Under the pieces are notes generated by a model that worked only from the letters and a program-made list of their open reading frames with translations, had not been told where the DNA came from and ran no database searches. Source: Methanomicrobiaceae archaeon (GTDB lineage: Archaea; Halobacteriota; Methanomicrobia; Methanomicrobiales; Methanomicrobiaceae). From it: DNA of 64,000 bases. The stretch spans positions 14,153-78,152 of the forward strand of contig JAFGNT010000016.1 of NCBI GenBank assembly GCA_016926855.1. Reading direction: 5' to 3'. Of this stretch, positions 7,187-20,934 are shown piece after piece (positions within the stretch are counted from its first letter, which is position 1; every line of letters begins with the position of its first letter). The position numbers and the translations under genes were made by a program.

Positions 7187-8484
7187 CGCAGCACCTCCTG
7201 TTCATAGGCATACGCCACGTCCACAACCTGTTCGTCCTCGAAGTGGCGCCCGATGATCTGCAGGCCTGCCGGAAGGCCGTTTATCGTGCCGCACGGAACT
7301 GATATCGCCGGCACTCCGGCGAGATTTGCGGGAACGGTGAGGATGTCGGAGAGGTACATCGAAAGGGGATCCGACTTCTCGCCAAGCCGCCATGCGGTCG
7401 TCGGCATCGTCGGGCCTGCAATTACGTCGACATCACTGAGCACACGGGTAAAGTCGTCCCTGACTGCTTTCCGCGCTACCTGCGCCTTCGCATAGTACTT
7501 GCCGTAATACCCTGCCGAGAGGGCGAAGGTGCCGAGCATGATGCGCCGCTGCACTTCCTTGCCGAACCGGTCTCCGCGGAGTTCCCGGAATGCTGCGTGC
7601 CATTGTTTCTTCGTATCGACAGCGGGACCGTAGCGGACACCGTCGAACCGCGCAAGATTAGAGGATGCTTCGCTTGTGCAGGTGACATAGTAGGCCGCAA
7701 GGGCGAAGGCCATCGACGGCATCGTGCACGGCACAATCTCCGCACCGAGATGCTCCAGCACGGCAATTGCATCGCGGACCCGCTCTCCGACCGCGTCGTC
7801 GACACCTTCGCCGAAGAACTCCGCAGGCACGCCGACACGGGTGCCGCGTATCTCTGCCGAGGGAGTGTGGGTGTACGGACGGTCGGCCGATGTCGAGTCG
7901 CGCCGGTCATGGCCCGCAATCACCGCCATCACGCGGGAGACGTCGCTGACCGTGGCAGCCAGCGGGCCGATCTGCTCAAGCGTATTTGAATAGGCAATGA
8001 GCCCGTACCGGGAAACACGGCTGTAGGTTGGTTTCAGCCCCACAATGCCGCAGAACGCAGCAGGGCAGCGTATTGAACCCCCCGTGTCGGACCCGAGCGC
8101 GGCAGGCACCAGGCCGCCGGCGACCGCAGCGGCACTACCGCCCGAAGAGCCGCCCGGGACCCTGCCCGGATCGGCGGGATTTGCCGTCGGTCCGTACGCA
8201 CTGTTTTCGGTGGTCGTGCCCATCCCGAACTCGTCCATATTGGTTTTTCCAACGATTCCGGCACCGGCAGCCTTCAGCAGGGTGACGACGTGGGCATCGT
8301 AGGGAGGAACATACCCCTCAAGGATACGCGAGCCGCAGGTGGTGGGGAGACCTGCCGTGGAGATATTATCCTTGATGGCCACCGGGAGTCCCTGAAGCGC
8401 ACCGTCACCATACCTGACTGTCTCCTGCCGGTACAGGAATGCATTCCAGCGGTCAGGCGCGTCGAAAGTGAACGTTCCCGCCAC
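7183..8484 (-). CDS. gatA: Asp/Glu-tRNA amidotransferase subunit A (amidase)
   Basis: 433 aa with the amidase signature GGSSGGSAAAVA and KDNISTAGLPTTCGS. The start is GTG at 8484-8482 and overlaps the gatC stop by 1 nt. Confidence 0.95.
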   Translation of the reverse strand: MAGTFTFDAPDRWNAFLYRQETVRYGDGALQGLPVAIKDNISTAGLPTTCGSRILEGYVPPYDAHVVTLLKAAGAGIVGKTNMDEFGMGTTTENSAYGPTANPADPGRVPGGSSGGSAAAVAGGLVPAALGSDTGGSIRCPAAFCGIVGLKPTYSRVSRYGLIAYSNTLEQIGPLAATVSDVSRVMAVIAGHDRRDSTSADRPYTHTPSAEIRGTRVGVPAEFFGEGVDDAVGERVRDAIAVLEHLGAEIVPCTMPSMAFALAAYYVTCTSEASSNLARFDGVRYGPAVDTKKQWHAAFRELRGDRFGKEVQRRIMLGTFALSAGYYGKYYAKAQVARKAVRDDFTRVLSDVDVIAGPTMPTTAWRLGEKSDPLSMYLSDILTVPANLAGVPAISVPCGTINGLPAGLQIIGRHFEDEQVVDVAYAYEQEVLR

Positions 8485-8771
8485 TACATCACCCTCGGCC
8501 CCTTGATAAATTCGTCCTCGGACGAACCGGGATTTGAGAGTACGGCGTCCTGATCGAGGGACGGCTCCACGATATCCTCGCGGAATATATTGTACCGGCC
8601 GGTATCCTCCGGAGACCCTGCTTCCACCGCGTCGAGCAGGTCAAAATATTCGAGAATTGAATTGAACTGTGCGGTAAATGTGCCCAGTTCTTCTTTTGGT
8701 ATGGATATATCCGCGAGGTTCGCGATATCGTTAATCTCAGTTTCAGATACCATTGTGTGCAGTCTCCCCAA
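8484..8771 (-). CDS. gatC: Asp/Glu-tRNA amidotransferase subunit C
   Basis: Small ORF ...MVSETEINDIANLADISIPKEELGTFTAQFNSILEYFDLLD, directly upstream of gatA. An alternative start at 8753 is possible. Confidence 0.85.
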   Translation of the reverse strand: MGRLHTMVSETEINDIANLADISIPKEELGTFTAQFNSILEYFDLLDAVEAGSPEDTGRYNIFREDIVEPSLDQDAVLSNPGSSEDEFIKGPRVM

Positions 8772-8796
8772 TCTGATTTAAGTACCCTTGTACCGC

Positions 8797-8806
8797 TTTT
8801 TTATAA
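8797..8806 (-). promoter_or_regulatory. candidate TATA box of the gatC-led operon
   Basis: The minus strand reads TTATAAAAAA about 26-35 nt upstream of the gatC ATG at 8771. This is compatible with a leaderless or short-leader archaeal transcript. Confidence 0.4.
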
Positions 8807-8916
8807 CCGTTTTGAGCAAGTTGACTGCGCCTTTTGTGTTTTGTAACCACAGAAAGAACGCCGGTTTTTACCACCAGTCAAGGCTTCTTGCCTTGAAGGT
8901 TTAATCGCTCCACCAT

Positions 8917-8923
8917 AAAAAAA
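8917..8923 (-). terminator. oligo-T terminator after ORF 8982..9416
   Basis: The minus strand reads T7 about 60 nt downstream of the stop at 8982. It is preceded by an imperfect GC hairpin (8951-8975). Confidence 0.4.
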
Positions 8924-8981
8924 CACCTCTCTTTTCACACCGGGGGAACGGGAAGGGCGTTTGTCGCCCCTTCACCTTTCC

Positions 8982-9416
8982 TCATCTCTTTTCAACCACA
9001 CGAACGCGGCCAATAACCGGAGTGATGCCATCCTGGCAATATTCACACCCGGGATCTTCCACATCTGCGTAGATTAGAATGTCCTCTTCAACCGCCAGAT
9101 CACCGAGTATTTCGTCTGGTTTTACGGCCCTCTTGTCTTCTGTGAACAGAAAAACATTCGGCCCGTAATACTCCGTTAAACGGGCATGCGCTTCTAATAG
9201 TGTCTGGAAGTTCTCTCTCCTAAACGGTGCTGCGCTTCCGTCAAGTTCTACCAGGACGTGATATTTTCCTATCTCTTCCTGCCGGACAACCATCACCGGG
9301 CTGTCACCCCATTCTTTCGGAAGATAGATGATCGAACTGCTCTGCCCTGCATATAAGCGAGGTGTCCGCCGGATCGCTTCAAACCCGCTTATTTCGAATT
9401 TGCTTTCTTTCTCCAT
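8982..9416 (-). CDS. hypothetical protein with N-terminal AbrB/SpoVT-like (DUF2080-like) motif
   Basis: 144 aa. The motif SSIIYLPKEWGDSPVMVV resembles the swapped-hairpin motif of the neighbouring DUF2080-like protein. The C-terminal half is acidic with a CxxC. Confidence 0.55.
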   Translation of the reverse strand: MEKESKFEISGFEAIRRTPRLYAGQSSSIIYLPKEWGDSPVMVVRQEEIGKYHVLVELDGSAAPFRRENFQTLLEAHARLTEYYGPNVFLFTEDKRAVKPDEILGDLAVEEDILIYADVEDPGCEYCQDGITPVIGRVRVVEKR

Positions 9417-9514
9417 GTGTGTCTCCTGTAATACACCATGTATTACATATGTATTATGTAGGTTTTAAACATATAAAAAGTCCTGTTTTTCTACGCACCG
9501 CCCCGGAAGTTTCT

Positions 9515-9541
9515 GGTAAGTGGTCATTGTGACCACTTACC
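9515..9541. repeat. perfect 27-nt palindrome (12-bp arms, 3-nt centre)
   Basis: GGTAAGTGGTCA-TTG-TGACCACTTACC, read directly. It lies in the AT-rich spacer between two element ORFs. A second inverted repeat, GTAATAC-N5-GTATTAC, lies at 9428-9446. Confidence 0.9.
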
Positions 9542-9567
9542 ACTTTGATGCGTTTGTCGCCCCTTTT

Positions 9568-9879
9568 TCACGCTTCGGTCACGGCGTCGGGAAACAGCTT
9601 CTCGAGCACGTCATACTGGTTCCGACGTTCAAGCCATCTGATGACCTCATCAGCACACATCGGGACGATCGACGACGAGCCGCTTATTGAGGTTCCGACC
9701 AGTTCCGTGTATGGCGACGCCGGGCCTCCCTCTCCGTGAAGGAACCAGTTCCCTTTTTTTGTCCGGTATAACGTCTCTTCGAAATACGCGAAATCTCCCC
9801 GATTGTGGCTGCTCGAGTATTCGGCGATCTGTTCTGCTGTTCTGGTGTCGTAGATTTTTCTGTCGATAATGACTCTCAT
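9568..9879 (-). CDS. hypothetical protein (element)
   Basis: 103-aa ORF MRVIIDRKIYDTRTAEQIAEY...KKGNWFLHGEGGPASPY. Codon usage looks coding. I recognise no domain. Confidence 0.55.
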   Translation of the reverse strand: MRVIIDRKIYDTRTAEQIAEYSSSHNRGDFAYFEETLYRTKKGNWFLHGEGGPASPYTELVGTSISGSSSIVPMCADEVIRWLERRNQYDVLEKLFPDAVTEA

Positions 9880-9894
9880 TTTTTCAGACTCCCA

Positions 9895-9908
9895 CCCCCA
9901 TATGGGGG
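9895..9908. repeat. perfect 14-nt palindrome CCCCCATATGGGGG followed by a 7-bp stem hairpin
   Basis: Read directly. The hairpin CGGGAGG-N7-CCTCCCG follows at about 9914-9934. Both lie in the 72-nt spacer between ORFs 9952.. and ..9879. Confidence 0.85.
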
Positions 9909-9951
9909 CATGCCGCCGGGAGGGTTTGCACCTCCCGCCCGCGTTGAACGG

Positions 9952-10152
9952 TCAGCGGCGACGGGGTTGTTCTTCGCCGTCCGGATCGCCGAATCGCAGC
10001 CGGGCGCATGCCGTACAGAACCCACCATGCCGCCGGTATTCTTCCAGGGTGAGCGGATACCCGCACTCCTTGCACGTGCAGGGCAGTGAAAAAACGATCA
10101 CGCCCTCACCCTCCAAAATTCCGGGGAAGTCCGGCCCGGAGCCCGGTATCAT
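9952..10152 (-). CDS. small zinc-ribbon protein (element)
   Basis: The C-terminal part reads VIVFSLPCTCKECGYPLTLEEYRRHGGFCTACARL (CxC..C...CxxC). The start is uncertain (10152, 10170 or 10200). It overlaps the 3' end of the upstream ORF in another frame. Confidence 0.45.
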   Translation of the reverse strand: MIPGSGPDFPGILEGEGVIVFSLPCTCKECGYPLTLEEYRRHGGFCTACARLRFGDPDGEEQPRRR

Positions 10153-10480
10153 GTAGGGGCCGGTGTGCATGGTCCGAGAGGGGAACGTCCAGGACAGCAC
10201 CCTCGAGCAGTTTTTTTATGCCCGCTGCCGGTGCGAAGTAACCCCCGCGATCGACAGAAAACAAGACCACACCGCCGGCGCCATACAACCGGCACTCTCC
10301 GCACCCTCGCACAATCTCACAGTCGCCTTCCGGGTGCGGTTCAATCCTCCTGAGGGGGACCTCTTCGCCTGCCAGCACCTTTTTGAGCATCCGGGTCGGC
10401 ATGAGGATCGGGGCGGTGCCGTCGATCAGGACGTGCACAGCCGATCCGAGTTTGATAATTTTCCCACAGTTTCCTAACAT
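10106..10480 (-). CDS. hypothetical protein (element)
   Basis: The ORF 10106..10711 is trimmed to the ATG at 10480 (MLGNCGKIIKLGSAVHVLIDG...), just downstream of a TATA-like box. The longer N-terminal extension would run through the divergent promoter. The last ~30 codons overlap the next ORF, so a frameshift cannot be excluded. Confidence 0.45.
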   Translation of the reverse strand: MLGNCGKIIKLGSAVHVLIDGTAPILMPTRMLKKVLAGEEVPLRRIEPHPEGDCEIVRGCGECRLYGAGGVVLFSVDRGGYFAPAAGIKKLLEGAVLDVPLSDHAHRPLHDTGLRAGLPRNFGG

Positions 10481-10503
10481 TTCTCTCTCTCCTGTTGCTA
10501 TAT

Positions 10504-10566
10504 TGTTGCTACAAAATAGCAATTGGAGTGAACCAATATATAGTTTGCTGCCACAATGTAGCAACA
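10504..10566. promoter_or_regulatory. divergent promoter/operator region with inverted repeats
   Basis: A 9-nt inverted repeat has arms TGTTGCTAC (10504-10512) and GTAGCAACA (10558-10566). An inner palindrome TTGCTA-N5-TAGCAA lies at 10506-10522. TATA-like AATATATA lies at 10535-10542 for the + gene, and CAATATAG reads on the minus strand near 10498-10505. Confidence 0.5.
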
Positions 10567-10724
10567 TGAAACCGTATACGGTGACAATCGAGGCATACGG
10601 GACGGCTGAGAAGGTGGTCGCAAACGGCGGGAACTCCGGACGGGTGTTCTTGCCGAAGGCATGGGTCGGCCGGCAGGTGAAGGTTCTCCTCCTGGAAGAC
10701 ATCGAACACAACCCCCACCTTTAA
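10566..10724 (+). CDS. AbrB/SpoVT-like small DNA-binding protein (DUF2080-like)
   Basis: 52 aa, MKPYTVTIEAYGTAEKVVANGGNSGRVFLPKAWVGRQVKVLLLEDIEHNPHL. The GNSGR-V/I-x-LPK-x-W-x-G-x-x-V-K-V motif is as I recall for archaeal DUF2080 proteins. It is the internal ATG of track ORF 10383..10724. Confidence 0.6.
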   Translation: MKPYTVTIEAYGTAEKVVANGGNSGRVFLPKAWVGRQVKVLLLEDIEHNPHL

Positions 10725-10860
10725 CCACCGCCGCCGTGCATGTTTTCCGGGCACTTCGGCAAACCGCCGGAATGATTCACCGGCCGGGCCGGAGACTCGC
10801 TTAAAACGCCGCTGTGTGGCTCTGAGAGGATTGTTTATATACTCCGTTCTTTTTCCACAC

Positions 10861-10867
10861 AAAAAAA
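10861..10867 (-). terminator. oligo-T terminator after ORF 10919..11416
   Basis: The minus strand reads T7 about 50 nt downstream of the stop at 10919. It marks the end of the long co-directional element operon. Confidence 0.4.
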
Positions 10868-10918
10868 GTGTTTTCCCAGGGAGTGGCTCACCCCATTCGG
10901 GGATCATTGCCCGCCTGC

Positions 10919-11416
10919 TCATTCGGTGAAGCGGGGATTACCGGATACAAAACACCGCACCGTGTGCACCCGTCCGCATGTGCAGGACACCCTCCCCGGT
11001 ATTTCACACGCCGTGAACGTGCCCGGCAACCCACCGATATACAACGGCTCGCCGGAAACGAGACGGGCCGCGGCCGCACTCACACGGACTGCCAGGCTGT
11101 CAACCGCCTTCGGTGAAAGTTCGCCGCCGTCTGGACATGTGAGCTGCTGCACCGGAACACCGTCCAGAAACACCACGGCCTGACCGTTTGCCTGTATCGC
11201 CGCCATGCGTTCCCGTGCAGCCAGCCGCGCCGCTTCCTCCTGTATCTCCCGTCGCCGTGCTTCGGCCGCTGCTTTTTCCTTTTCCTGCCGGGCCTGTTCA
11301 CGTGCTTCCTTCCTCAAAAGTTCGTCGGTGGATATGCCAAGTTCCTTATACAGAAGCTCAATCCGCTCGGATTCGCTTAATAAGCGACTGTCCCTAATTT
11401 TCAGTGTGGCTGTCAT
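10919..11416 (-). CDS. hypothetical protein with charged coiled-coil N-terminus (element)
   Basis: 165 aa. A Glu/Arg/Ala-rich helix (KEAREQARQEKEKAAAEARRREIQEEAARLAARE) is followed by a Cys-containing C-terminal domain. Confidence 0.55.
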   Translation of the reverse strand: MTATLKIRDSRLLSESERIELLYKELGISTDELLRKEAREQARQEKEKAAAEARRREIQEEAARLAARERMAAIQANGQAVVFLDGVPVQQLTCPDGGELSPKAVDSLAVRVSAAAARLVSGEPLYIGGLPGTFTACEIPGRVSCTCGRVHTVRCFVSGNPRFTE

Positions 11417-11422
11417 GTTTTT

Positions 11423-11740
11423 TCACTCCATGAAATGAATGCCGTATTTCCGTTCAAATGCCTTTTGCCGGGCGATTTTCGCCGTTTCGTCACTCTGCTG
11501 CTGCCGGGCGGATAAAACGCGGTCCGCCTCGATACCGGCGATCTGGGTTTTGAGAAGAGCGTGTTTTGTCCTCTCCTGCTGCAGCGTTGCTTCGAGGAGT
11601 CGCCGCCGGATGTCGCCGGAATCCACCGCCGGCCCGACGGGGGAAGTGTTTTCGAATTGCTTTATCTGGCATGCGCTCCGCGGGCCAACTGGCATTTCGG
11701 GCCCGACAAAGTGTGAAATTGTGGGTTTCGATGGTGTCAT
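11423..11740 (-). CDS. hypothetical protein (element)
   Basis: 105-aa ORF. Its ATG overlaps the stop of the upstream micro-ORF (ATGA). Confidence 0.5.
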   Translation of the reverse strand: MTPSKPTISHFVGPEMPVGPRSACQIKQFENTSPVGPAVDSGDIRRRLLEATLQQERTKHALLKTQIAGIEADRVLSARQQQSDETAKIARQKAFERKYGIHFME

Positions 11741-11877
11741 AAGTTTTTATCCTCCTCGTCAAACCGAATCCGGCCAGGGCCAGGTTCGAAATCTTCCGGC
11801 TTGCAGAAAAATACCTTTAATCCGCTGTCCTCTTTCCGTTCAAGCGCCTTTAAGCGCGTTTCAATAGTTCGTGTCAT
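11737..11877 (-). CDS. micro-ORF, 46 aa (element; not in ORF track)
   Basis: My translation is MTRTIETRLKALERKEDSGLKVFFCKPEDFEPGPGRIRFDEEDKNL. The ATG overlaps the upstream stop (ATGA) and the stop overlaps the downstream ATG (ATGA). It exactly fills the gap between two listed ORFs. Confidence 0.45.
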   Translation of the reverse strand: MTRTIETRLKALERKEDSGLKVFFCKPEDFEPGPGRIRFDEEDKNL

Positions 11878-12158
11878 TGTTTTTCCTCCAGGGCGGCGAT
11901 TCGCCGGCTTAACTCGTCAATCTGTTCGTCTTTCAGCGTCGTATTCAGGGCCTGCGCCGTCGCTGACATTGCGCGGACGGCTGCCAGCCAGCCGGGATCG
12001 GATTCTTTCGTCTTGAACCGGGCCGCCGTTATGCGCCCGTGTAATTTTTTCAATACGTCGCTAAGCATGCGGGTAATTTCGTCCCGTTTTAAAGCCTCTC
12101 CGGGTTCCCTTTCGGTTTTAAACGTCCCGGCGGGCGTTCTGGTGCGTGGTTCGGTCAT
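11874..12158 (-). CDS. hypothetical protein (element)
   Basis: 94-aa ORF with a helical C-terminus (DEQIDELSRRIAALEEKQ). Confidence 0.5.
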   Translation of the reverse strand: MTEPRTRTPAGTFKTEREPGEALKRDEITRMLSDVLKKLHGRITAARFKTKESDPGWLAAVRAMSATAQALNTTLKDEQIDELSRRIAALEEKQ

Positions 12159-12237
12159 GCTGCCTCCGTTTTGGTTGTTCTGTTCTCGCTGCAGGGGACC
12201 GGCCGCGGTCGTGGCCAGGGGGGGATACCGTGCGAGG

Positions 12238-12456
12238 TCATGGTGTTCTCCGTCGGATCTCCGGGGCCGGGCCTCGTACCGATTTCGGCCGGTGTGGGTG
12301 AGCCTGGCTGTCGAACCCGATCAGCGACACGCACCGGCATTTTCGGCACATGATGATTTCACCAGGCGCGCGGACCTGCTTCCATTGCGCACCGCATCGG
12401 CCACATGTAAACTCGATCCGCTGCTCGTCGTTGTCGATGTCGTTGTCGTCGCTCAT
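12238..12456 (-). CDS. small zinc-ribbon protein (element)
   Basis: Trimmed to the ATG at 12456, which forms an ATGA overlap with the upstream stop. The sequence reads MSDDNDIDNDEQRIEFTCGRCGAQWKQVRAPGEIIMCRKCRC, with CxxC...CxxC. Confidence 0.5.
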   Translation of the reverse strand: MSDDNDIDNDEQRIEFTCGRCGAQWKQVRAPGEIIMCRKCRCVSLIGFDSQAHPHRPKSVRGPAPEIRRRTP

Positions 12457-13058
12457 GTCCGCACCTCCGGGCCGATTGTCCACGTCACCCCGACGGCATC
12501 CAGTACAACCCGTGGTTTCACTGCTTCCGCCGGCCATCGGTCGGGGCCGTCATAGTCTTTGAGCCAATACACATCCGTCTCCCAGTGCGTGCCTCGCGGA
12601 CCGGGCCCCCGGTCCTCGCGCCGGTGGAAGACAACCGCGATGATTGACTTCTGGTTTGCGAACAGGTGCCGTTTCGGGTTGAATTGCCCGGGGCCGCCCG
12701 GTGAGTAGACTCCACGATGACGCCGGACGTAGGGGAGCTGCATGAGTTCGGCAGGGTTAATGAAGAGCTGTTTTTCTTTCGGGTGCCGTTTCGGTTTCCG
12801 CATGGCGTCCCGTGCCTGCCGGTAGAGTCCCGCCGATCGTGGGTGCCCGAGTGCATCGTGCAGGCGGGTGAGTCCTTGGAGTGCCTGCCGTCGGACGGTA
12901 TCGCCTCGGGCGCACTCGAGCGCGTGCTCGTAGAGTTTGAGTGACTTCTCCAGGTCACGGACGGCCATCCGGCCCCGCTCATGGAGCCGGGCAAAAAACA
13001 GGCACCCGTGAGGGTTGTCCTGCAGGTTCGCGGGGATTGTGCTGGTCATGCTGGTCAT
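12453..13058 (-). CDS. hypothetical protein (element)
   Basis: Trimmed to the ATG at 13058 (MTSMTSTIPANL...), 2 nt after the upstream stop at 13060. I recognise no domain. Confidence 0.5.
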   Translation of the reverse strand: MTSMTSTIPANLQDNPHGCLFFARLHERGRMAVRDLEKSLKLYEHALECARGDTVRRQALQGLTRLHDALGHPRSAGLYRQARDAMRKPKRHPKEKQLFINPAELMQLPYVRRHRGVYSPGGPGQFNPKRHLFANQKSIIAVVFHRREDRGPGPRGTHWETDVYWLKDYDGPDRWPAEAVKPRVVLDAVGVTWTIGPEVRT

Positions 13059-13059
13059 A

Positions 13060-14067
13060 TCACACCTCCTCCAGAGAGACGCCGCCGAATTTGGTACTAG
13101 TACCAAATTGGATTGCCATGTTGTCGAGCGTCTCCCGTTCCAACGCCTCGATTTGTTGTGTCCGCCGTAGAATGTCGGGGTCAATATGGCACTCGATGCA
13201 CATACTCACAAGTTCCCGGAGCACGGGAGGGGGGATGGCGTCAAGTTCCGTGCTCCCCCCCACCCAGGCTTTCGCCCGGTGGTCGTGTTTGTTCCGCTTC
13301 GTCGGCCGTTCCGGTAACCCGAGCCTCTCGATCTGCTCGCGGTTCACGGCCACAACGTCGAGGGTGAAACGCCGCGCTCCCATCTTCGTGAGTTCGTCGC
13401 TGATATGTCGCGGGATGTCCGCACCGGCGGGGTCGTGGTCTCCGAAATAATAGATATACGTCCATTTTTCACGGCTTTTGATTGACTCTGCAGCAGCGTG
13501 AATGAACGACATGGAAGGATACCCTTTACATGGAAAGATGCCGACATCGTACTCTTCCGTGATCGGATCGATGACGCCGATCAGCGCCTCCTTCTCGATC
13601 CAAATTTCCACTTCATCGCGCTGATCGTTCCACAAAGAGCGCCGGTATGTTCGTCTGGTTTCGTCGAGTGCCGCCTGCAGACCCGTATGTGTTTTGGGTT
13701 TCCGAATCCACCGCGTCAAGTCCGCGATGAAACTATAGGGGATAGCCTCCTCCTTTCGCATGTTCCCCAGGTGGTTTGCTGTTTGCCGATACCCCTGCTC
13801 CGTTTTTGGGACAATTCCCCGGGTTTCGAGCTGGTAGAACATTTGTCGGACGGTCATGGGAGTATCGCACTCATCAAAGGATCTGAGAATCCCGACCCAA
13901 ACCCGCGCTGTATCGTCTCGGAGCGGTTTCCGGCCTGCTGCGGCTTTTCCCCGGTTGAAAAAATCGATTATCCCATCATCCGAAATGCTACAGACCGGGA
14001 CGTCACCGATCTTTATATGCGATTCCGGCGTGCATGGGATGATCGGGCCGGCATCGTTTCCGTTCAT
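13060..14067 (-). CDS. Spo11/Topoisomerase VI subunit A-like protein (winged-helix 5Y-CAP + Toprim; Mini-A-type)
   Basis: 335 aa. TVRQMFYQL resembles the R-x-x-[FY]-Y catalytic-Tyr helix. IWIEKEALIGVI supplies the Toprim glutamate. YYFGDHDPAGADI supplies the Toprim DxD followed by P-x-G, as in Top6A/Spo11. No Top6B-like gene is present in the element. Confidence 0.65.
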   Translation of the reverse strand: MNGNDAGPIIPCTPESHIKIGDVPVCSISDDGIIDFFNRGKAAAGRKPLRDDTARVWVGILRSFDECDTPMTVRQMFYQLETRGIVPKTEQGYRQTANHLGNMRKEEAIPYSFIADLTRWIRKPKTHTGLQAALDETRRTYRRSLWNDQRDEVEIWIEKEALIGVIDPITEEYDVGIFPCKGYPSMSFIHAAAESIKSREKWTYIYYFGDHDPAGADIPRHISDELTKMGARRFTLDVVAVNREQIERLGLPERPTKRNKHDHRAKAWVGGSTELDAIPPPVLRELVSMCIECHIDPDILRRTQQIEALERETLDNMAIQFGTSTKFGGVSLEEV

Positions 14068-14122
14068 GCCAGCACCCCCCCGAAGTCGCCGCGGTTAATG
14101 CACAGTGATGATATTTCCCGCA

Positions 14123-17014
14123 TTATTTACCGCCTCCGTGTATACCGGGTGAGGGTGTAGAGGGTGGGGGGGTGCTTTCATCCACTCTAGGTAAATTTAC
14201 ACATTTGTGTTTCTCACACGGAGTAGAGTAATTTCCCTCACCACCCTCTACACCCTCACCACTTTCTGTTAGATCTGCCTGCCGGGTCTGTCGTCCCCCC
14301 TCTTTGATCAGCCATGCGACACTGCCGCCGTGTGCCCGCGTCATCGCTTTTTTGAGAAGGAGCCCGCAGGGGTAAACCACATCGCGAGCCTTTGCAAACG
14401 ATTTCCCGATCCTGGTCCGGAAAGCGTGCCCGGACTTCTCGCGGGCTTCGGCGAGTTCGTCGGGGAGCGAGTCTGTGAGAGGTCGCTCCCCACCGCTGAT
14501 GGTTTCGGCGTTGAGGTGGTCGATAAAGTCCGACACCGTGAACGAGCTCTTAAACTCACCGCGTAGTGCCTGCAGGAAAGCGCTCCACTGTTCGCCCGAT
14601 GCGTCGGCTGATGCGTATAGCCCCTGCTGGTTTGCCATGAACCCCTTGATGCCCGCGTAATCCAGCACACCACTCACAACGTCTATCCACTCTTCAAACC
14701 CCCCGAGTTTGGGTTTTGTCCGTGGTGCAGGCCTGCCGGCGATTATCCAGGCTCGCACCAGAACATACACCGAGGACAGGAGACGGGCCCGGTTATCAAT
14801 CACCCACGTCCGCAGCGGGTAGTGCAGGAACCCGTTTGTGTCACGTTCACCGGGCCGGGCCATCTTCGCGTCAATGCGTGAGTAGAAGCACCTTTGTGCC
14901 ATATCTGGTGAGAGCTGGACGTTGTTCCCGTTAATGAGCCAGAATATCCGGTTCTCAAAAACCACGCTCTTGTTTACTCCCATCCACCGGTCCTTCCACG
15001 CCGACGCCGTTATCACCGCCGCGAGGTTTGAGGTCTTCAGCCCCTGGTCGATGTTGTCCATCAAGATGATGGTTGTCCCCACCGCAAGCTCAGTTGTGAT
15101 GAATTTCCGGAACTCCTCATCACTCGCGGCCTTTGTTTTAATCGGCGGCGGCGACCCCGTGAGGACACGGTATATGACCTCCTGGAGGAGACTCGCCCCG
15201 GTCCGTGGCTGCGGTTTATCGCACAGGTAGGCCGGCACGTTCCCGGAAATAATCGGCCGGGCGACATGAGTAACCAGGGCCGCGATTGCATTGCCCCTGT
15301 CAGCGTGCCGGGCATCGCCGAACGTGTCGGGATCGCTCTCACCGAGGAAGGGGAAATCGTGCAGGAGTTCATCCAGCAGCCGGACGGCCTGATCCACATC
15401 CTCTTTCCCGATAACCTCCGGAACAGTGAACCCGTCGAGGTCCGGGGTAGGGTTGTAAATCAACTCCGTCGCCGCGTCGTAACCCGGATCGGTTACGATC
15501 GTGCCGTCATCCCGGACAATCGGGACATCCACCACACCGATTACCGCCGGCAACCTCCATGTGTGCGGACTCGAGCTGAGCACATCATCGAGAACATGTG
15601 CCGGCGGTGGACAAGGGATCTCTTCAACGCTCCCGTCCCGGAGTTCCCGGCTTTTTACCCATTCGCACGTTCGCATGAGAACGCCCCGGAGCATTTCACG
15701 GGTCACGGGAGCGAGGTTCACACGTCGGCGTTTCTCGTCGAAGTGCAAGGCGACCATTTCACCGGATCGGGCGAACACGTGCGGATCGGACTCGTTGGCC
15801 TTCCGGATCGATTCAAGGGCCTGTTCGGTAAGATCCGGTATCGAACCGCTCACGTAGATCGTCGGGTTTCCCGCACCACTCACATTATTTCCGGCTGTTG
15901 GTGGTGCGCTGCCACTCCTCGCCACGGGCGCAGCTGGTGCATGCTTTTCCCGGCCGGGGTCGTAAATCGCCCGGAGATCGCTCCACCCCATCCCCTGGCA
16001 GGAAGCGTGATGGCATCCCGCAGCAATCGCACCGTTTCCAAATTGAATGGCAAAAGCGCCGTCATTATGCGCCGACGAGAACGGACACCGTTCAAGCTTG
16101 AACAGCGTCCCGCCTTCGTATGGCCGGTCTGACTGCACACCGATACCATGATCGTGAAGCCATGCGCGAAGGTCGATTGACCCGCCGCCTGCCGCTCGAG
16201 TGGGTGCAGCGGGCGGTTTTGGCGCGAGTCCGGCGAGCCATTCCAGCCGCTCGACGGGCACCTGCTGCACCTCGTCCGGCACCCCAAGGATCTTCGCACG
16301 ACGGTGCGGGCGGTCCGGTACATCGTCGCCCTTGCGGGCCGTTGTGCCGTAAAGTTTCCATATCCGGGCGGCGTTGAAATTCGTGGTATCGACCGATACC
16401 GCTTCACCGGAGAAGATGACGTCGAGGGTCGTGAGGCAGCTCTTGATAAGCGCCGTTGCCGCTTCGTCGTTTGCGATGTCGATTGCGTAGAGCAGGTGCG
16501 CTCCGTTCCCGGAATCGGCCATTATAGGCAGCGGGAATCCGTTGTCGGTGAGCCATTCGCCGATTTGTGCGGCCTTCTCGATCGCGCCGGCGTGCTCCTC
16601 GTCACTCGAGGAGATACCGGACGGCCTGACTGCGTCAAGATCGATTGGTAGCCATCGCCGCTGGATAATATCAGCATCGCCGGTCAGGGAGTCTCTTCCG
16701 GCCGGGAGGATTCGTCCTTTCCGTCGGGCGAGAAGCGCCGGAATAACGGGATTTATCGTTACATAAACGCCCTTCGTTGAACCGAGACTGTCCGCAAGCA
16801 GGGCCTCACCGGCGATGTCGTCTTCACCACCGAAATATCCATAGTTTGTCGGGCCGTTTTGCGTAAGGACCCGCACTTCGACAACATCGCCCGGCCCAAA
16901 GAGCAGATTCCGGACCTTCTGGATCTCGTCACGCCGCGTCCCCTCAATCGGTGCGGGGGCGTGCGTGATCTTCCATCCGGCAGCCGTCGCCTCGTTTGTC
17001 ACGGTGTCGGTCAT
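14123..17014 (-). CDS. AEP-family primase-polymerase fused to a large C-terminal domain (replication protein of the element)
   Basis: Trimmed to the ATG at 17014 (ATGA overlap with the upstream stop). AEP motifs are present: LPIDLDAV (DxD), ADSGNGAHLLY (sGxGxH) and VDTTNFNAARIWKLYGT. A Zn motif CPFSSAH...CHHASC follows. The C-terminal ~550 aa has an SF3-helicase-like layout (IILMDNID, LINGNN), but I find no canonical GxxxxGK[ST]. Confidence 0.75.
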   Translation of the reverse strand: MTDTVTNEATAAGWKITHAPAPIEGTRRDEIQKVRNLLFGPGDVVEVRVLTQNGPTNYGYFGGEDDIAGEALLADSLGSTKGVYVTINPVIPALLARRKGRILPAGRDSLTGDADIIQRRWLPIDLDAVRPSGISSSDEEHAGAIEKAAQIGEWLTDNGFPLPIMADSGNGAHLLYAIDIANDEAATALIKSCLTTLDVIFSGEAVSVDTTNFNAARIWKLYGTTARKGDDVPDRPHRRAKILGVPDEVQQVPVERLEWLAGLAPKPPAAPTRAAGGGSIDLRAWLHDHGIGVQSDRPYEGGTLFKLERCPFSSAHNDGAFAIQFGNGAIAAGCHHASCQGMGWSDLRAIYDPGREKHAPAAPVARSGSAPPTAGNNVSGAGNPTIYVSGSIPDLTEQALESIRKANESDPHVFARSGEMVALHFDEKRRRVNLAPVTREMLRGVLMRTCEWVKSRELRDGSVEEIPCPPPAHVLDDVLSSSPHTWRLPAVIGVVDVPIVRDDGTIVTDPGYDAATELIYNPTPDLDGFTVPEVIGKEDVDQAVRLLDELLHDFPFLGESDPDTFGDARHADRGNAIAALVTHVARPIISGNVPAYLCDKPQPRTGASLLQEVIYRVLTGSPPPIKTKAASDEEFRKFITTELAVGTTIILMDNIDQGLKTSNLAAVITASAWKDRWMGVNKSVVFENRIFWLINGNNVQLSPDMAQRCFYSRIDAKMARPGERDTNGFLHYPLRTWVIDNRARLLSSVYVLVRAWIIAGRPAPRTKPKLGGFEEWIDVVSGVLDYAGIKGFMANQQGLYASADASGEQWSAFLQALRGEFKSSFTVSDFIDHLNAETISGGERPLTDSLPDELAEAREKSGHAFRTRIGKSFAKARDVVYPCGLLLKKAMTRAHGGSVAWLIKEGGRQTRQADLTESGEGVEGGEGNYSTPCEKHKCVNLPRVDESTPPPSTPSPGIHGGGK

Positions 17015-17136
17015 TCGGGGACCTCGTCGAGATATAACCTCCGGATTGCGGACCGCTGCTGATCGGTGAGTTTTCCAAGGTCCCAACCGTTCGCCTCGAG
17101 CACCATGATCGCGCCGCCTCGCGTCCGTGGAACCAT
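17011..17136 (-). CDS. micro-ORF upstream of primase (element)
   Basis: It ends ...MVLEANGWDLGKLTDQQRSAIRRLYLDEVPE, and its stop overlaps the primase ATG (ATGA). The start is uncertain: ATG at 17136, or GTG at 17175 overlapping the previous stop. Confidence 0.35.
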   Translation of the reverse strand: MVPRTRGGAIMVLEANGWDLGKLTDQQRSAIRRLYLDEVPE

Positions 17137-17167
17137 CGTCGCGCCACATGTACGGGTTTTCCCGGAA

Positions 17168-17332
17168 TCAGGCACTTTCCACACGCTCCGGAGGGTAATC
17201 TTCAATCGTCCAGATACCGGCCTCAACCATTATCTCACCGATCCCGATGAGGGCGGGCGTGGCCTTCTCGAACGCCTCAATCGCCTCAAGGGTGACAATG
17301 CGTGGGTTTTCGCACGTGGCGATCGGGGTCAT
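17168..17332 (-). CDS. micro-ORF, 54 aa (element; not in ORF track)
   Basis: My translation is MTPIATCENPRIVTLEAIEAFEKATPALIGIGEIMVEAGIWTIEDYPPERVESA. The ATG overlaps the RHH gene stop (ATGA). Confidence 0.4.
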   Translation of the reverse strand: MTPIATCENPRIVTLEAIEAFEKATPALIGIGEIMVEAGIWTIEDYPPERVESA

Positions 17333-17481
17333 CGCGGCCGCCTTCCTGCGCGGTCGTCGGATGCAAGGCTGTTTGACAAAATCTCGTTGATATACGTCGA
17401 GCGGGGAATGAGCCCCCGCCGCCGGTCGGTTTCGGCGACGAGCTCGTCATCGAGCGTCAATTGAACGGGACGTTTTACCAT
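17329..17481 (-). CDS. ribbon-helix-helix (CopG/Arc-like) DNA-binding protein
   Basis: This is the internal ATG of track ORF 17329..17754. The sequence MVKRPVQLTLDDELVAETDRRRGLIPRSTYINEILSNSL shows the typical RHH beta-strand plus two helices. It is the first gene of the element's long operon. Confidence 0.6.
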   Translation of the reverse strand: MVKRPVQLTLDDELVAETDRRRGLIPRSTYINEILSNSLASDDRAGRRPR

Positions 17482-17550
17482 GAAAAGTAATAGTTGTGTG
17501 AATAGGTATAAATATCGGAATGCTAAAAATAATATAGAGTGCGTGTAAAA
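17482..17550. promoter_or_regulatory. AT-rich divergent promoter region of the element
   Basis: Two TATA-like boxes, GGTATAAATAT and CTAAAAATAATATAG, lie between the RHH gene (minus) and ORF 17551.. (plus). The spacing is compatible with leaderless transcripts. Confidence 0.45.
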
Positions 17551-18186
17551 ATGAATAAAACCCGGAAAGAAAACGAATTTATCGATGAAGTGAAGGAAGA
17601 GCTTTTTTGGATCAACCAAAAAAAACCGATCGGGGTTCCGTCGGAAGAATGGGAGCGCGAAAAAAACCGGTTTTTTTTGTTTGTCGATCCGCCATTTTTT
17701 GCCGTCACGCGGGGGCTCGAGATTATAAAATTTGGCCAGACGAACAACGCGCATCTCGCGCTCATCGAGCAGACCGGAACGGTGAAAACCATCGATTTTT
17801 CAAAAGACAGGGAGTTTCGTGTATCGCTGACCGACGGCGGCGTGTCGTTTTCTGACAACGTCTGCGAATGGTGCGGTGCTCCGTTTCCGGAAGGACTCAC
17901 CCGGCGGCAGTCGGGAAAGCGCCGGTTTTGTGACGCTCTCTGCAAACAGCGGTTCGCGGCATTCGAAAAGCAGTTCAGCGCACTCTGTGAAAATGAGAGT
18001 GTAGCGGACGGGCTGCAGCTTCTGCACGACTTGGGATCCCCGGCCGCATACCTGCTGGGTATCCTCCAACGTGGGCGAACATGTCTTCACTGTGGCGGCG
18101 ACATACCACCCGAAAAACCTTTAAATAGCCGTTTCTGCTGCGATTTGTGCCGTTTCGCGCACCACAACGCGAAAAAAAAGCGATAA
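17551..18186 (+). CDS. hypothetical protein with two CxxC...FC-x3-C zinc motifs (element)
   Basis: The ATG at 17551 (MNKTRKENEF...) is preferred over the GTG at 17539. The two motifs are CEWCG..RRFCDALCKQRF and CLHCGG..SRFCCDLCRFAHH. Confidence 0.55.
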   Translation: MNKTRKENEFIDEVKEELFWINQKKPIGVPSEEWEREKNRFFLFVDPPFFAVTRGLEIIKFGQTNNAHLALIEQTGTVKTIDFSKDREFRVSLTDGGVSFSDNVCEWCGAPFPEGLTRRQSGKRRFCDALCKQRFAAFEKQFSALCENESVADGLQLLHDLGSPAAYLLGILQRGRTCLHCGGDIPPEKPLNSRFCCDLCRFAHHNAKKKR

Positions 18187-18199
18187 AAAAAGATTATTT

Positions 18200-19408
18200 T
18201 CACTGTTTTCCTTCAAGTGCCGCCTTCACCCGCCTGTCTATGAGCGCCTGCAGTGCCTCCGGGTGCGCTGCCACGTCCGCCTGCATACTCTGCACCGTGG
18301 CGATCTGCCTCTGAATCTTCGCGAGTTCGGCACGTAATGTATCGTTCTCCTCGCGGAGCTCGTCAAGGTGTCCGCCGACGATCGCGGCCGCCACATCATC
18401 CGCCACACCGACACAGACGGCACCCTCCGCCTGCAGGTAGTGCTGCCGGAGATCCTCCTCGGTATAGCGGACATATGCATCGGCGAGGTATCCGTTATGC
18501 CCGATCAGCAGCTCCACCACGTCGATCGGTATCCGCTGCGCCATGACCGTCCGGAAAAACTTCCGGCACTGGTGAAGGTGGACCCGTCGCCGGTTCGTCT
18601 TCGGGTCGATATCGTCGACGCCTGCCTTCTTCAGGGCGTTCGCAAAAGAATATTGGAGAGTCGCAGGATGCACCGGGAAGATACGATCGTCGCCGTCGAT
18701 AACCTTCACCAGGTCCTCCTTCCCGTGATACCGCAATAGTCCGTTATTACGCTGCACCGATGATGTGAGCCACTTGTCCCGCACCTCGAGCCAGGCACGA
18801 ACGGCGGCGGCTGCCTCCCGACTAATAAAGGTTGTGCGAGGATCCCCAGACTTTGTGATGTCGCCCGGGATCGCAATCCGGGCCGGCTCTTCGTCGAGGT
18901 GGATGTCCTCCATCCGGAGGAGGAGTGTCTCGCCGATACGCATCCCAGAACTAAGCATCGTCAAGAACACCGCCTTTGTCTGGACCGGCATATACGGCAC
19001 GATTTTCTGTATCAGGTCACGGGAGAACGTGGCCTCCCGGGTCCGTGCCAGCCGTCCCTTCGGTGCCTTCTTCTTCGTCGCCTTCCAGACATCATCAGCG
19101 ATCTCGATCCCGTTCGCCTTAGAGAACTCTTTCAGGACAGCCAGCCAGAACTGCGCGGACTTCGGCGGTGACTTCGAGGCGTTCAGGGATGCCGCATATC
19201 GCTGAAGGTCAAGCGCATAGTTCCGCGGTTCTGTGAAATAGGCATTGGCGAGGGCTTCATACTGCCGGGCCTCTTCCTGCGTGACGACCCGGCCCTTCCG
19301 CACCGGCTCATAAATGAAATCCAGATACCGGCGGCAGGCACTCGCATAACTGGATCGGGTGCCTTTGTTCCCCTGTAAAGATATAAAATCTGCGATCCTG
19401 TGACTCAT
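18200..19408 (-). CDS. tyrosine recombinase / phage-type integrase
   Basis: 402 aa. Catalytic-domain signatures are present: SSGMRIGETLLLRMEDI (Arg I), HLHQCRKFFRT (H-x-x-R) and LIGHNGYLADAYVRY (His/Tyr). Confidence 0.85.
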   Translation of the reverse strand: MSHRIADFISLQGNKGTRSSYASACRRYLDFIYEPVRKGRVVTQEEARQYEALANAYFTEPRNYALDLQRYAASLNASKSPPKSAQFWLAVLKEFSKANGIEIADDVWKATKKKAPKGRLARTREATFSRDLIQKIVPYMPVQTKAVFLTMLSSGMRIGETLLLRMEDIHLDEEPARIAIPGDITKSGDPRTTFISREAAAAVRAWLEVRDKWLTSSVQRNNGLLRYHGKEDLVKVIDGDDRIFPVHPATLQYSFANALKKAGVDDIDPKTNRRRVHLHQCRKFFRTVMAQRIPIDVVELLIGHNGYLADAYVRYTEEDLRQHYLQAEGAVCVGVADDVAAAIVGGHLDELREENDTLRAELAKIQRQIATVQSMQADVAAHPEALQALIDRRVKAALEGKQ

Positions 19409-19430
19409 ACAGAGTATATATGTTGCTTAG

Positions 19431-20417
19431 TTATAATAAACTTTTCACGTAGTCAGCAACACAACAATAACCGTTTTCACGTGCAAGGTTCCGGATCACT
19501 TTCCAGACACCGCTGCCGTACTGCATTGCCTTCTTCTCGTACCTGGCGATATCCGGCGGCATTTCCCGCTCCGCAACCCGCCTGAGGTCGCGTTTTCTCA
19601 CTCCACCCGCAACCATCCCTGCGGGCGGCAGCGCCTGAGCAGCGCGCACGACACGGATGTCAAGGTACGGCAGCGAAAAGGACGTGCCGTGAAGGCCTCC
19701 GACCGCCTGGTCACGCGCACTCTGGGCGGCAAGCCCGCGGAAATCCTTCTCGAGATCCCCGGCGAGGTCCGTACTTACGAGGTACCGGGCATATCCTCCA
19801 AAGAGTTCATCTGCGCCCTGGCCTGCAAGAATACGGGTATATCCGTGCTCCGCCGCCCATGCGGCAACACAGTACAGCGTTGTTGCGATAGAGGCGTCAA
19901 CGGGATTTTTGTCCGGGATGACCGGCACCACGGCATGCAATGCCGCGGAGATCATGGCAGGCGTCAGTTCGACAGTATGAAGCGACAGCCCGAGCTTCTC
20001 TGCGACATATGCCGCCCGCTCCAGATCGTGAGATCCGGGCAGGCCGACTGCCACGCAGGGAAGACCGGCAAGTACCGCGATGAGGCTTGAGTCCACGCCC
20101 CCGGAGAGTGCGGTGATACCCGCATCGCTCCGGAGCCGTACCGCCTCGACGATAGCGTCATGGAGATCGAGATCCGGCGGATCGGGTGAAACGGTGCCCG
20201 CTTCTCTTCCGTTGCAGAAAACAGTGCCGGCGGGACAGGGGCCGGGTATAATTCCGAAATGGTCCCGTGCCACGCAGCCGTCCCAGGAAAGCAGGAATTC
20301 GCCCCCGAAACGCCCGACGGCGGACGGCCCGGCCTCCAGCAGTGCCCCGACATCGTCGGCGGACAGGCGCTGCCCGTCCTCCTCGATCCACCCTTGCAGC
20401 ATTACGGTGTCAACCAT
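19431..20417 (-). CDS. asparagine synthase-family PP-loop ATPase lacking a canonical N-terminal glutaminase Cys
   Basis: 328 aa with the PP-loop LSGGVDSSLIA and QGADELFGGY. The N-terminus is MVDTVML (no Cys2) and the N-domain is only ~95 aa. Confidence 0.75.
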   Translation of the reverse strand: MVDTVMLQGWIEEDGQRLSADDVGALLEAGPSAVGRFGGEFLLSWDGCVARDHFGIIPGPCPAGTVFCNGREAGTVSPDPPDLDLHDAIVEAVRLRSDAGITALSGGVDSSLIAVLAGLPCVAVGLPGSHDLERAAYVAEKLGLSLHTVELTPAMISAALHAVVPVIPDKNPVDASIATTLYCVAAWAAEHGYTRILAGQGADELFGGYARYLVSTDLAGDLEKDFRGLAAQSARDQAVGGLHGTSFSLPYLDIRVVRAAQALPPAGMVAGGVRKRDLRRVAEREMPPDIARYEKKAMQYGSGVWKVIRNLARENGYCCVADYVKSLL

Positions 20418-20538: not shown

Positions 20539-20934
20539 ATGATTATCAGTATTCAGACACGCGAGCAGGTCGAATCAATCCTCCGTGCATTGCAGGATGC
20601 ATACTCCGCACGGGACACCGACGGCGTGATGGCGCTCGTCGCACCCGGATTTGTCGGGTACGGGAGCGGTGAAAAGGTACCATCCGCGGAGGAGTACAGG
20701 GACCATCTTTCACGGGAATTTTCCCCCTGTGACACTCTGTCCCTCACTCTATCCGACCTGCATATCGGTGCGTCCGGCACCGTTGCATGGATTCTCGCAG
20801 ACGCAACCGTCACTGCCGGTACCGGAGGCGTTACGCACCGCTACGCCGGAAGGCTGACCATGGTGCTGGTGGGCACCGGGCATACGTGGAAATTCGTGCA
20901 GTCGCATTTCTCTCTTCCCGAACAGAAAGAATAA
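20539..20934 (+). CDS. SnoaL-like / NTF2-fold protein (DUF4440-like)
   Basis: 131 aa, ...ILRALQDAYSARDTDGVMALVAPGF...GTVAWILADATV...WKFVQSHFS. This is the typical NTF2-like pattern. Confidence 0.6.
   Translation: MIISIQTREQVESILRALQDAYSARDTDGVMALVAPGFVGYGSGEKVPSAEEYRDHLSREFSPCDTLSLTLSDLHIGASGTVAWILADATVTAGTGGVTHRYAGRLTMVLVGTGHTWKFVQSHFSLPEQKE

Follow-up and report, generated by a model that had tools for sequence, protein, structure and literature searches.

The present study concerns a stretch of 64,000 nucleotides (hereafter the window, whose numbering is used throughout) from a Methanomicrobiaceae archaeon (assembly GCA_016926855.1, contig JAFGNT010000016.1), in which a block of genes is interposed between an asnB-like gene and the gatCAB operon. 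The question raised by this locus is what kind of element the block represents, how it came to its position and how it might replicate. Few mobile elements have been described for the Methanomicrobiales, an order that contributes substantially to methane production in digesters and wetlands, and the locus provides an element with base-pair boundaries, belonging to a set that shares an integrase aimed at one conserved protein-gene site. We consider the block to be probably, with a probability of roughly 0.6, a cryptic, self-replicating, site-specific integrative plasmid with a SaPI-like replicon.

The insertion, the integrase and sister elements

The features that delimit the insertion are given below; gatCAB, the asnB-like gene and, beyond the latter, a SnoaL-like gene and purB are all on the minus strand.

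5765-7186, minus strand: gatB
7183-8484, minus strand: gatA
8484-8771, minus strand: gatC, with the likely ATG at 8753
8743-8802, minus strand: displaced native 3' end of the asnB-like gene (KKAVQGYLNQIGETAHNGI, then a stop codon), overlapping the gatC start and starting with the A-rich half of the putative TATA box of gatC
8803-8813: attL core ATAACCGTTTT, an exact direct repeat of 19467-19477
18200-19408, minus strand: intact tyrosine integrase gene (PF00589, E 2.6e-14; phrog_1, E 4e-23)
19409-19466, minus strand: element-derived att arm, comprising the substitute asnB tail CCVADYVKSLL with its stop codon (19431-19466) and an AT-rich stretch upstream of the integrase gene
19467-19477: attR core ATAACCGTTTT, corresponding to the E-N-G-Y codons of the asnB-like gene
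19431-20417, minus strand: asnB-like gene, 328 aa, Asn_synthase domain (E 2.9e-33)

Several lines of evidence bear on the insertion. First, an exact 11-bp direct repeat, ATAACCGTTTT, was observed at both ends of the block, and the two copies are identical; shuffling the two boundary zones 2000 times gave a match of at least this length in only 23 cases. Read on the minus strand, the repeat specifies the residues E-N-G-Y of the asnB-like protein, placing the insertion point within the last codons of this open reading frame (ORF). When the block and one copy of the repeat were removed in silico, joining 8802 to 19467, the tail of the asnB-like protein read ...ARENGYKKAVQGYLNQIGETAHNGI followed by a stop codon, in agreement with relatives both in protein (L010, ...RKNGYKKSVQGYLNHISRAEYGIGD and a stop codon, also given as ...NGYKKSVQGYLNHISRAEYGIGD and a stop codon) and, nearly base for base, in DNA. 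This reconstruction, which gives back a native-type tail, is stronger evidence for insertion than the repeat statistics. The insertion is bounded by an 11-bp duplicated core in the 3' end of the asnB-like gene, with an intact integrase beside the core, and the element measures 10,664 bp (8803-19477). In a preliminary description of the locus, made from the sequence alone, a block of about 10.7 kb had been placed at 8803-19493; the location and the left end are upheld, and the right boundary moves to 19477 because the exact repeat ends there.

Second, one genome per species was scanned for the asnB-like protein across the Methanomicrobiales, and loci with both the asnB-like gene and gatC were counted. 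In all 45 such loci (Methanoregula, Methanoculleus, Methanogenium and related metagenome-assembled genomes (MAGs)), the asnB-like gene is followed by gatC-gatA-gatB within a few tens of bases, and no matches to the integrase, the primase or the Mini-A protein discussed below were found there. Empty sites, which the preliminary description had suggested looking for, thus exist at the family level. Rather than being kept in conserved synteny with no att duplication, the block is absent from 45 of 45 relatives, and the 11-bp att repeat is present in the window.

Third, the end of the asnB-like ORF carries GGTTATA at the DNA level in all 45 relatives (8795-8813 in the window, and the same position in L010-L081), and GGTTATAAA is found in 41 of them. 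The median distance from the start of this conserved GGTTATA(AA) stretch to the gatC ATG downstream is 50 nt, in otherwise GC-rich genomes, and the stretch is probably the TATA box of the gatCAB promoter, lying inside the asnB-like ORF. The suggestion that the element was inserted at the promoter of the gatC operon might hold on the basis of this motif, while what can be demonstrated as the target is the 3' terminal part of the asnB-like ORF. With a copy of the core at each end, AAAACGGTTAT remains contiguous with host AAAAAAGCGG at attL, and at attR the asnB-like gene runs in frame into a surrogate tail; neither this gene nor gatCAB would thus seem to suffer from the insertion. In other words, the host tail is replaced and the TATA-like stretch (the putative promoter) is kept in front of the essential gatCAB operon, such that the insertion is apparently harmless to the asnB-like gene and its neighbours.

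A tRNA-targeting element was considered and rejected, since no tRNA genes were found anywhere in the window, and Rfam gave no match at the gathering score across the 64 kb. A bacterial promoter and terminator scan gave counts not above those of shuffled sequences, using a bacterial consensus that does not apply to archaea. A search for exact matches of GatA returned no record. The GC content is 57.1% in the element and 59% in the flanks, a gap so small that composition alone is a weak signal. The contrast previously drawn between AT-rich islands and GC-rich host genes is seen in dips to a GC of 0.47-0.50 at about 8500-9750 and 17250-18000, and is weak overall.

The assignment of a tyrosine integrase at the right edge of the block is confirmed by the profile matches given above. 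The integrase ORF is uninterrupted, with 58 nt separating its start from the core upstream, and R157, K186, H279, R282, H304 and Y312 are invariant across 14 homologues. A total of 20 homologous proteins, 59-74% identical, were found. Three of these, 68-72% identical and located on longer metagenome contigs (L090, L091 and L092), are encoded directly downstream of asnB-like genes; orthologous integrases thus occupy the same asnB-like junction in other genomes. As in the window, the asnB-like proteins of these three loci switch tail right after N-G-Y, the substitute tails being YYVTDYVKKLL, YRPTDWIKSLKKLL and YHVTDWLKAMKK, respectively, each followed by a stop codon. All three also conserve the DNA arm that links the core to the integrase start, and the host order purB-SnoaL-asnB of L091 is the same as that of the window.

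The cargo of these sister elements differs. L090 carries a DUF5906 helicase, L091 carries a D5_N/DUF5906 primase-helicase, and L092 (173-11396) combines a PF27228 ('MTBMA_p00010_2nd') replication protein with an EVE-domain protein and genes for type I restriction-modification, suggesting that this integrase family also moves defence-type cargo. The window and the sister elements have in common the integrase, a 54-aa acidic protein, the archaeo-eukaryotic primase (AEP) domain (45-57% identity in L091 and L092), DUF8136 (L090) and DUF2080 (L091). As judged from these comparisons, this is a modular element family defined by integrase and target site, with variable cargo. The integrase gave no match in a phage collection, and a scan of IMG/VR with the primase revealed no close relative of the element.

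The gene set had been regarded as unlike that of any described family. No description was indeed found in the literature searched, including any described family of such elements for the host order Methanomicrobiales; however, the set is not unique and belongs to a loose family sharing integrase and target site. An asnB-targeting family, a protein-gene target with tail replacement, and a Mini-A protein outside recognisable viruses appear to be undescribed in the literature searched. The kind of element itself is well known, and what is presented here is a new family member of a familiar type. A tyrosine integrase is likewise encoded by the pT26-2/SSV-type elements of Thermococcales and Methanococcales (PMC6972569, PMC7253208), which are small plasmids or viruses integrated in archaeal genomes. 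According to PMC7253208, SSV-type integrases have the recombination site inside their own gene, which is split on integration; in contrast, the integrase ORF in the window is whole, with the site upstream of it.

Two observations on the host genes are added here. The asnB-like protein, which consists of an asparagine-synthase domain only, is tightly linked to gatCAB across the Methanomicrobiales (19431-20417 in the window; L010-L081), often overlapping the gatC start, which hints at a functional connection with the tRNA-dependent synthesis of asparagine or glutamine. The SnoaL-like gene between purB and the asnB-like gene is found in the window (20539-20934) and in L091 (8419-8850), and is unmatched in other Methanoculleus-like loci.

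Replication protein, putative origin and Mini-A protein

The following features constitute the putative replication module.

14123-17014, minus strand: primase-helicase, 963 aa, with an AEP primase, a Zn-binding module, a D5-like superfamily 3 (SF3) helicase and a C-terminal winged-helix-like end; a 1008-aa form starting from 17149 is possible
14148-14260: putative origin, a perfect 20-bp inverted repeat (arms 14148-14167 and 14241-14260) inside the 3' end of the primase-helicase ORF
13060-14067, minus strand: Mini-A-type topoisomerase VI-A-like protein, 335 aa, with 5Y-CAP and Toprim domains (phrog_6247 'DNA topoisomerase', E 2.4e-57)

The 963-aa protein is identical to hypothetical protein JXA08_05085 (locus tag) of a Methanomicrobiaceae archaeon MAG, encoded on a contig of 104 kb. 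No match was obtained against Pfam, NCBIfam or PDB sequences, even with a 25-sequence profile, and the AEP assignment therefore rests on motifs and fold. No variation was seen among 87 homologues in the motifs D125-x-D127, S168-G-N-G-x-H173 and D209 or in a C/H zinc cluster. An AlphaFold (AF2) model based on these 87 homologues (mean pLDDT 87) was compared using Foldseek, and matched poxvirus D5/E5 (vaccinia D5, MPXV E5), the SaPI5 primase-helicase (PriRep), the NrS-1 C-terminal region and ASFV PrimPol with E values of 2e-8 to 1e-5 and a probability of 1.0; the poxvirus match spans both domains, and many phage primase-helicases also match. The protein had been described as an AEP primase-polymerase fusion, and the AEP primase is retained, with an SF3 helicase, according to fold and motifs, as the fused partner. 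The last structured part comprises helices at 827-876 and strands at 885-905 (helix-helix-helix-strand-strand) and, from this order of secondary structure, looks like a winged helix.

The helicase P-loop reads K600-P-Q-P-R-T-G606-A607-S608, which departs from the canonical Walker A GK[ST] in that alanine replaces lysine. Among the 87 homologues, K600/A607 was observed in 42 and A600/K607 in 32 (codons 600-607 correspond to 15193-15216), and the remaining homologues, with neither state, mostly share the AEP domain only. Since the two states mirror each other, the lysine may have moved, rather than ATPase activity having been lost, in about half of the family, including the window protein; the exchange of the lysine between two positions is amenable to biochemical testing. 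Relatives of the 963-aa protein occur in phages, including a Methanosarcinales tailed virus, and in small plasmids, including one from Methanothrix soehngenii. Full-length relatives, 37-40% identical, are found in integrase-bearing elements at other chromosomal sites in Methanoculleus sp. 7T, a Methanotrichaceae MAG and others, and the best primase homologue in a large protein collection, 49% identical, is located on a 3.8-kb contig.

Each arm of the putative origin consists of tandem 9-mers with the core GAGGGTG, and the 73-nt spacer between the arms has a GC content of 42%, compared with 57% for the element. In a DNA fold of 14148-14260, a z score of -6.4 was obtained, and none of 200 shuffles was as stable. 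An equal layout with unrelated iteron sequences was observed at the corresponding 3' part of the ORF, which encodes a disordered tail, in the diverged loci L082, L084 and L086. In L082 (12751-13068), four forward and four reverse copies of AGTGTATCC surround a 100-nt spacer with a GC content of 40% (65% for the gene), and all eight copies within 13 kb lie in these arrays, with none elsewhere. L086 (12714-13020) has three forward and four reverse iteron copies, and L084 (12584-12774) has three forward and three reverse copies of GCGGGTAGT around a 65-nt spacer with a GC content of 34%. An architecture that is kept while the iteron sequence changes is expected of an origin co-evolving with its initiator, and 14148-14260 is likely a replication origin embedded in coding sequence.

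The layout is that described for SaPI origins, in which an AT-rich centre separates iterons of opposite orientation that serve as binding sites for the winged-helix domain of Rep (PMC9371898). The window element resembles the replication module of SaPIs and phage-inducible chromosomal islands (PICIs) in three respects: a primase is fused to an initiator with a hexameric-helicase fold and a C-terminal winged-helix-like end; the putative origin is on the 3' side of rep, its AT-rich centre being bordered on either side by two or more iterons that point in opposite directions; and an integrase and divergent regulators are located upstream. It differs in having an archaeal host, in the position of the putative origin inside the rep ORF (that of SaPI is just downstream) and in iterons that are 9-mers rather than penta- or hexamers. 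Moreover, unlike SaPI/PICI, it has no P-loop lysine at the canonical position, no packaging genes detected and a Mini-A gene.

The 335-aa protein had been described as Topo VI-A-like, and this description is supported and can be refined. Its AF2 model (pLDDT 91) has Topo VI A (1d3y, 9o8p; probability 1.0, E about 1e-3) as the top folds, with small Toprim proteins ranking next. Three signatures, RxxFY (R74-Q-M-F-Y78), E (E158) and DxDxxG (D210-H-D212-P-A-G215), are invariant in 52 homologues, and no GHKL/Bergerat-fold B subunit was matched among the element ORFs. These signatures place the protein in, or very near, the published Mini-A subfamily, which likewise consists of stand-alone proteins of about 300 aa with an RxxFY catalytic tyrosine, E and DxDxxG, an ELDA-type box and no B subunit nearby (PMC7671362). 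Mini-A was reported only in viruses and proviruses, with an xWELDAL box that separates it from Topo VI and Topo VIII (Takahashi et al. 2019, PMC7671362). In contrast to published Mini-A, the C-terminal box is STELDAI in the window protein and SVELDAI in the consensus of close homologues (S-[VT]-ELDAI), so that the ELDA core is present and the tryptophan is absent, and the blocks of the window, L093 and L094 have no recognised structural gene.

In L093 (10001-12684), from a methanogen, Mini-A lies in a small integrase-bearing block and is directly followed by a helicase-only homologue of the 963-aa protein without the AEP domain; in L094 (7963-12617), also from a methanogen, it lies in an integrase-bearing block of about 4.7 kb with no primase. 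No Pfam-recognisable structural genes were called in the Mini-A blocks of the window, L093 and L094 (5-12 kb). The presence of Mini-A in small blocks without detected structural genes widens the published 'viruses only' picture. Two other possibilities were rejected. An obligate coupling of Mini-A to the helicase family does not hold, since the helicase homologue is co-encoded on only 2 of 80 Mini-A-bearing IMG/VR contigs, and the adjacency in the window, L093 and L095 is thus not general. The neighbouring orf201 was discarded as a 'Mini-B' partner on the grounds that it has no phage homologue and no ATPase domain.

A probable integrative plasmid and competing explanations

Archaeal integrative plasmids and 'cryptic integrated elements' of the pNOB8 type keep their integrase gene intact on integration (see also PMC6563490). 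The window element shares with them an intact tyrosine integrase beside attP, a primase-helicase replicase, many small ORFs without an assigned function and no structural genes; it differs in that it is inserted at the 3' end of a protein-coding gene (asnB-like), and not in a tRNA gene, and in that a replacement protein tail is supplied. No capsid, portal, terminase or conjugation proteins were detected among the element ORFs using Pfam, PHROGs and NCBIfam. The preliminary description had likewise seen no capsid, portal or terminase and had favoured an integrated plasmid over a provirus, and both views are supported.

Herein, we propose a sequence of events for such an integrative plasmid. First, the integrase would recombine an attP just upstream of its own gene, predicted as ...CAGCAACACAACA|ATAACCGTTTT|GAGCAAGTTGACTG..., with the conserved host AAAACGGTTAT in an empty attB, predicted as ...GTACCGCTTTTTT|ATAACCGTTTT|CACGTGCAAGG.... 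The attP arm would repair the host gene with a surrogate 11-residue C-terminus and stop codon, and since the arm encodes this tail, the asnB-like gene would stay whole; the core duplication would leave the TATA-like GGTTATAAAAAA in front of gatCAB. Second, a divergent zinc-finger/RHH (ribbon-helix-helix) regulator pair might act as an on/off switch. Third, after excision, the C-terminal winged-helix-like end of the primase-helicase would bind the inverted iterons in the 3' end of its own gene, and the protein might then open the AT-rich spacer, load itself and prime synthesis in the manner of SaPI PriRep, with Mini-A possibly cutting or untangling DNA in replication or resolution. The compact replicon (rep with its putative embedded origin) and the integrase/att pair are candidate genetic tools for methanogens.

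Several points weigh against this explanation. All copies on record, in one genome and one Logan contig, are integrated, and neither an excised circle nor an empty site was seen in the same population; the relatives with empty sites are distant, their asnB-like proteins being 54-63% identical to that of the window. The assignments of origin, gatC promoter and regulatory switch all derive from sequence only. The helicase has no canonical Walker A lysine, and ATPase activity is thus not assured. Finally, nine or ten element ORFs have no annotation, so that an unrecognised structural or transfer module is possible among them.

Among the competing explanations, the element might be a virus satellite similar to the PICIs, remaining integrated until induced by a helper virus, replicating by its own PriRep and origin and being packaged in helper capsids; the element and its sister elements at the asnB site would then be archaeal virus satellites on the PICI plan, mobilised by a Methanomicrobiales virus. 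The size and layout (integrase, divergent regulators, primase-helicase, AT-centred iteron origin and no structural genes) fit the template as outlined in PMC13376191, the SaPI5 primase-helicase is one of the top structural matches, and Mini-A has been described as a virus-associated gene. However, no small terminase (terS), capsid-size redirection (cpm) or other packaging gene was detected, and no helper virus is visible in the window or known. Moreover, this architecture is equally typical of archaeal integrative plasmids. We consider a satellite unlikely; if true, these would be the first PICI-like satellites in methanogens.

The same unannotated ORFs could be taken to encode the structural proteins of a small temperate archaeal virus of an unrecognised type, as nine or ten of them match no library, the capsid proteins of archaeal viruses often escape profile searches, and Mini-A and the helicase have many viral relatives. 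Nevertheless, a hydropathy scan of the element ORFs revealed no transmembrane-grade hydrophobic segment (the highest 19-residue hydropathy was below 1.6), such as is present in the capsid proteins of spindle-shaped or pleomorphic archaeal viruses. In addition, there is no ORF above 215 aa besides the replication genes, no packaging ATPase was found among the element ORFs, and the sister elements share the integrase and replication genes and not the candidate 'structural' ORFs. Such a virus is accordingly an improbable explanation, slightly more so than a satellite. The least probable is a fixed remnant that is no longer mobile, with genes decaying or domesticated, which would account for the record of only an integrated form and for the helicase without the canonical lysine, but is disfavoured by ORFs that are all intact and tightly packed, two identical core copies, intact catalytic residues in the integrase, a lysine change that is family-wide and reciprocal rather than a private defect, and an origin inverted repeat that is perfect over 20 bp.

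Regulators and small reading frames

The remaining features of the integrative plasmid proposed here are as follows, from the integrase side to the gatC side.

17551-18186, plus strand: 211-aa protein with two C-terminal zinc fingers, divergent from the RHH operon (phrog_54 DksA-like zinc finger, E 8e-6; weak Pfam matches to DUF2116 and zf-dskA_traR)
17482-17550: putative AT-rich divergent promoter or switch region of about 70 bp, suggested by sequence and GC dip
17329-17481, minus strand: RHH-like repressor, 50 aa, first gene of the operon (phrog_4738 'transcriptional repressor', E 3.9e-4; strand-helix-helix by eye)
17168-17332, minus strand: orf54a, small and acidic, with 45-53% identical copies in L086, L090, L091 and L092
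12453-13058, minus strand: orf201, basic (pI 10.2), its start overlapping the end of the Mini-A gene
12238-12456, minus strand: orf72, zinc-ribbon (CxxC...CxxC; weak Zn_Ribbon_TF and RPAB4 matches)
11874-12158, minus strand: orf94, DUF8136 (PF26457 on the identical Logan gene), with homologues in L090 and L093
11737-11877, minus strand: orf46, no assigned function
11423-11740, minus strand: orf105, no assigned function
10919-11416, minus strand: orf165, last gene of the long operon, with a coiled-coil N-terminus and a Cys-rich C-terminus (sub-threshold matches only)
10566-10724, plus strand: DUF2080 (AbrB/SpoVT-like) protein, 52 aa, divergent from orf124 (PF09853, E 9.7e-6, above the curated cut-off), with homologues in L082, L091 and L093
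10106-10480, minus strand: orf124, Cys-rich, called on the Logan contig, no profile match
9952-10101, minus strand: possible 49-aa zinc-ribbon ORF (CxC..C...CxxC), not called on the Logan contig
9568-9879, minus strand: orf103, no profile match
9417-9567: AT-rich intergenic region with the perfect palindrome GGTAAGTGGTCA-TTG-TGACCACTTACC
8982-9416, minus strand: orf144, no Pfam, PHROG, NCBIfam or PADLOC match; its N-terminal 'IIYLPKEWG' resembles a DUF2080/AbrB-type motif by eye

The element contains 16-17 ORFs rather than the 18 or so counted earlier. The RHH-led co-directional operon running from 17481 to 10919 on the minus strand was correctly delimited in the preliminary description, and its genes, which overlap or nearly abut, number 10 instead of 11. 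The AbrB-like and zinc-ribbon ORFs reported for the distal arm are present, as seen from PF09853 and the ORF translation, respectively; this left arm comprises the DUF2080/AbrB-like protein and four small ORFs without matches, with the 49-aa zinc-ribbon ORF as a possible fifth. PADLOC revealed no defence cargo among the element ORFs, except for a weak similarity of the Toprim domain of Mini-A to JetD, and tandem repeats in the element were limited to trivial short ones.

Also, a 16-nt exact repeat, GCGTTTGTCGCCCCTT, was observed at 8957-8972 and 9550-9565, each copy just 3' of the stop codon of neighbouring element genes, and the 12+12 perfect palindrome GGTAAGTGGTCA/TGACCACTTACC (about 9515-9545) adjoins the second copy. 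The repeat and the palindrome may represent shared terminators or protein-binding sites.

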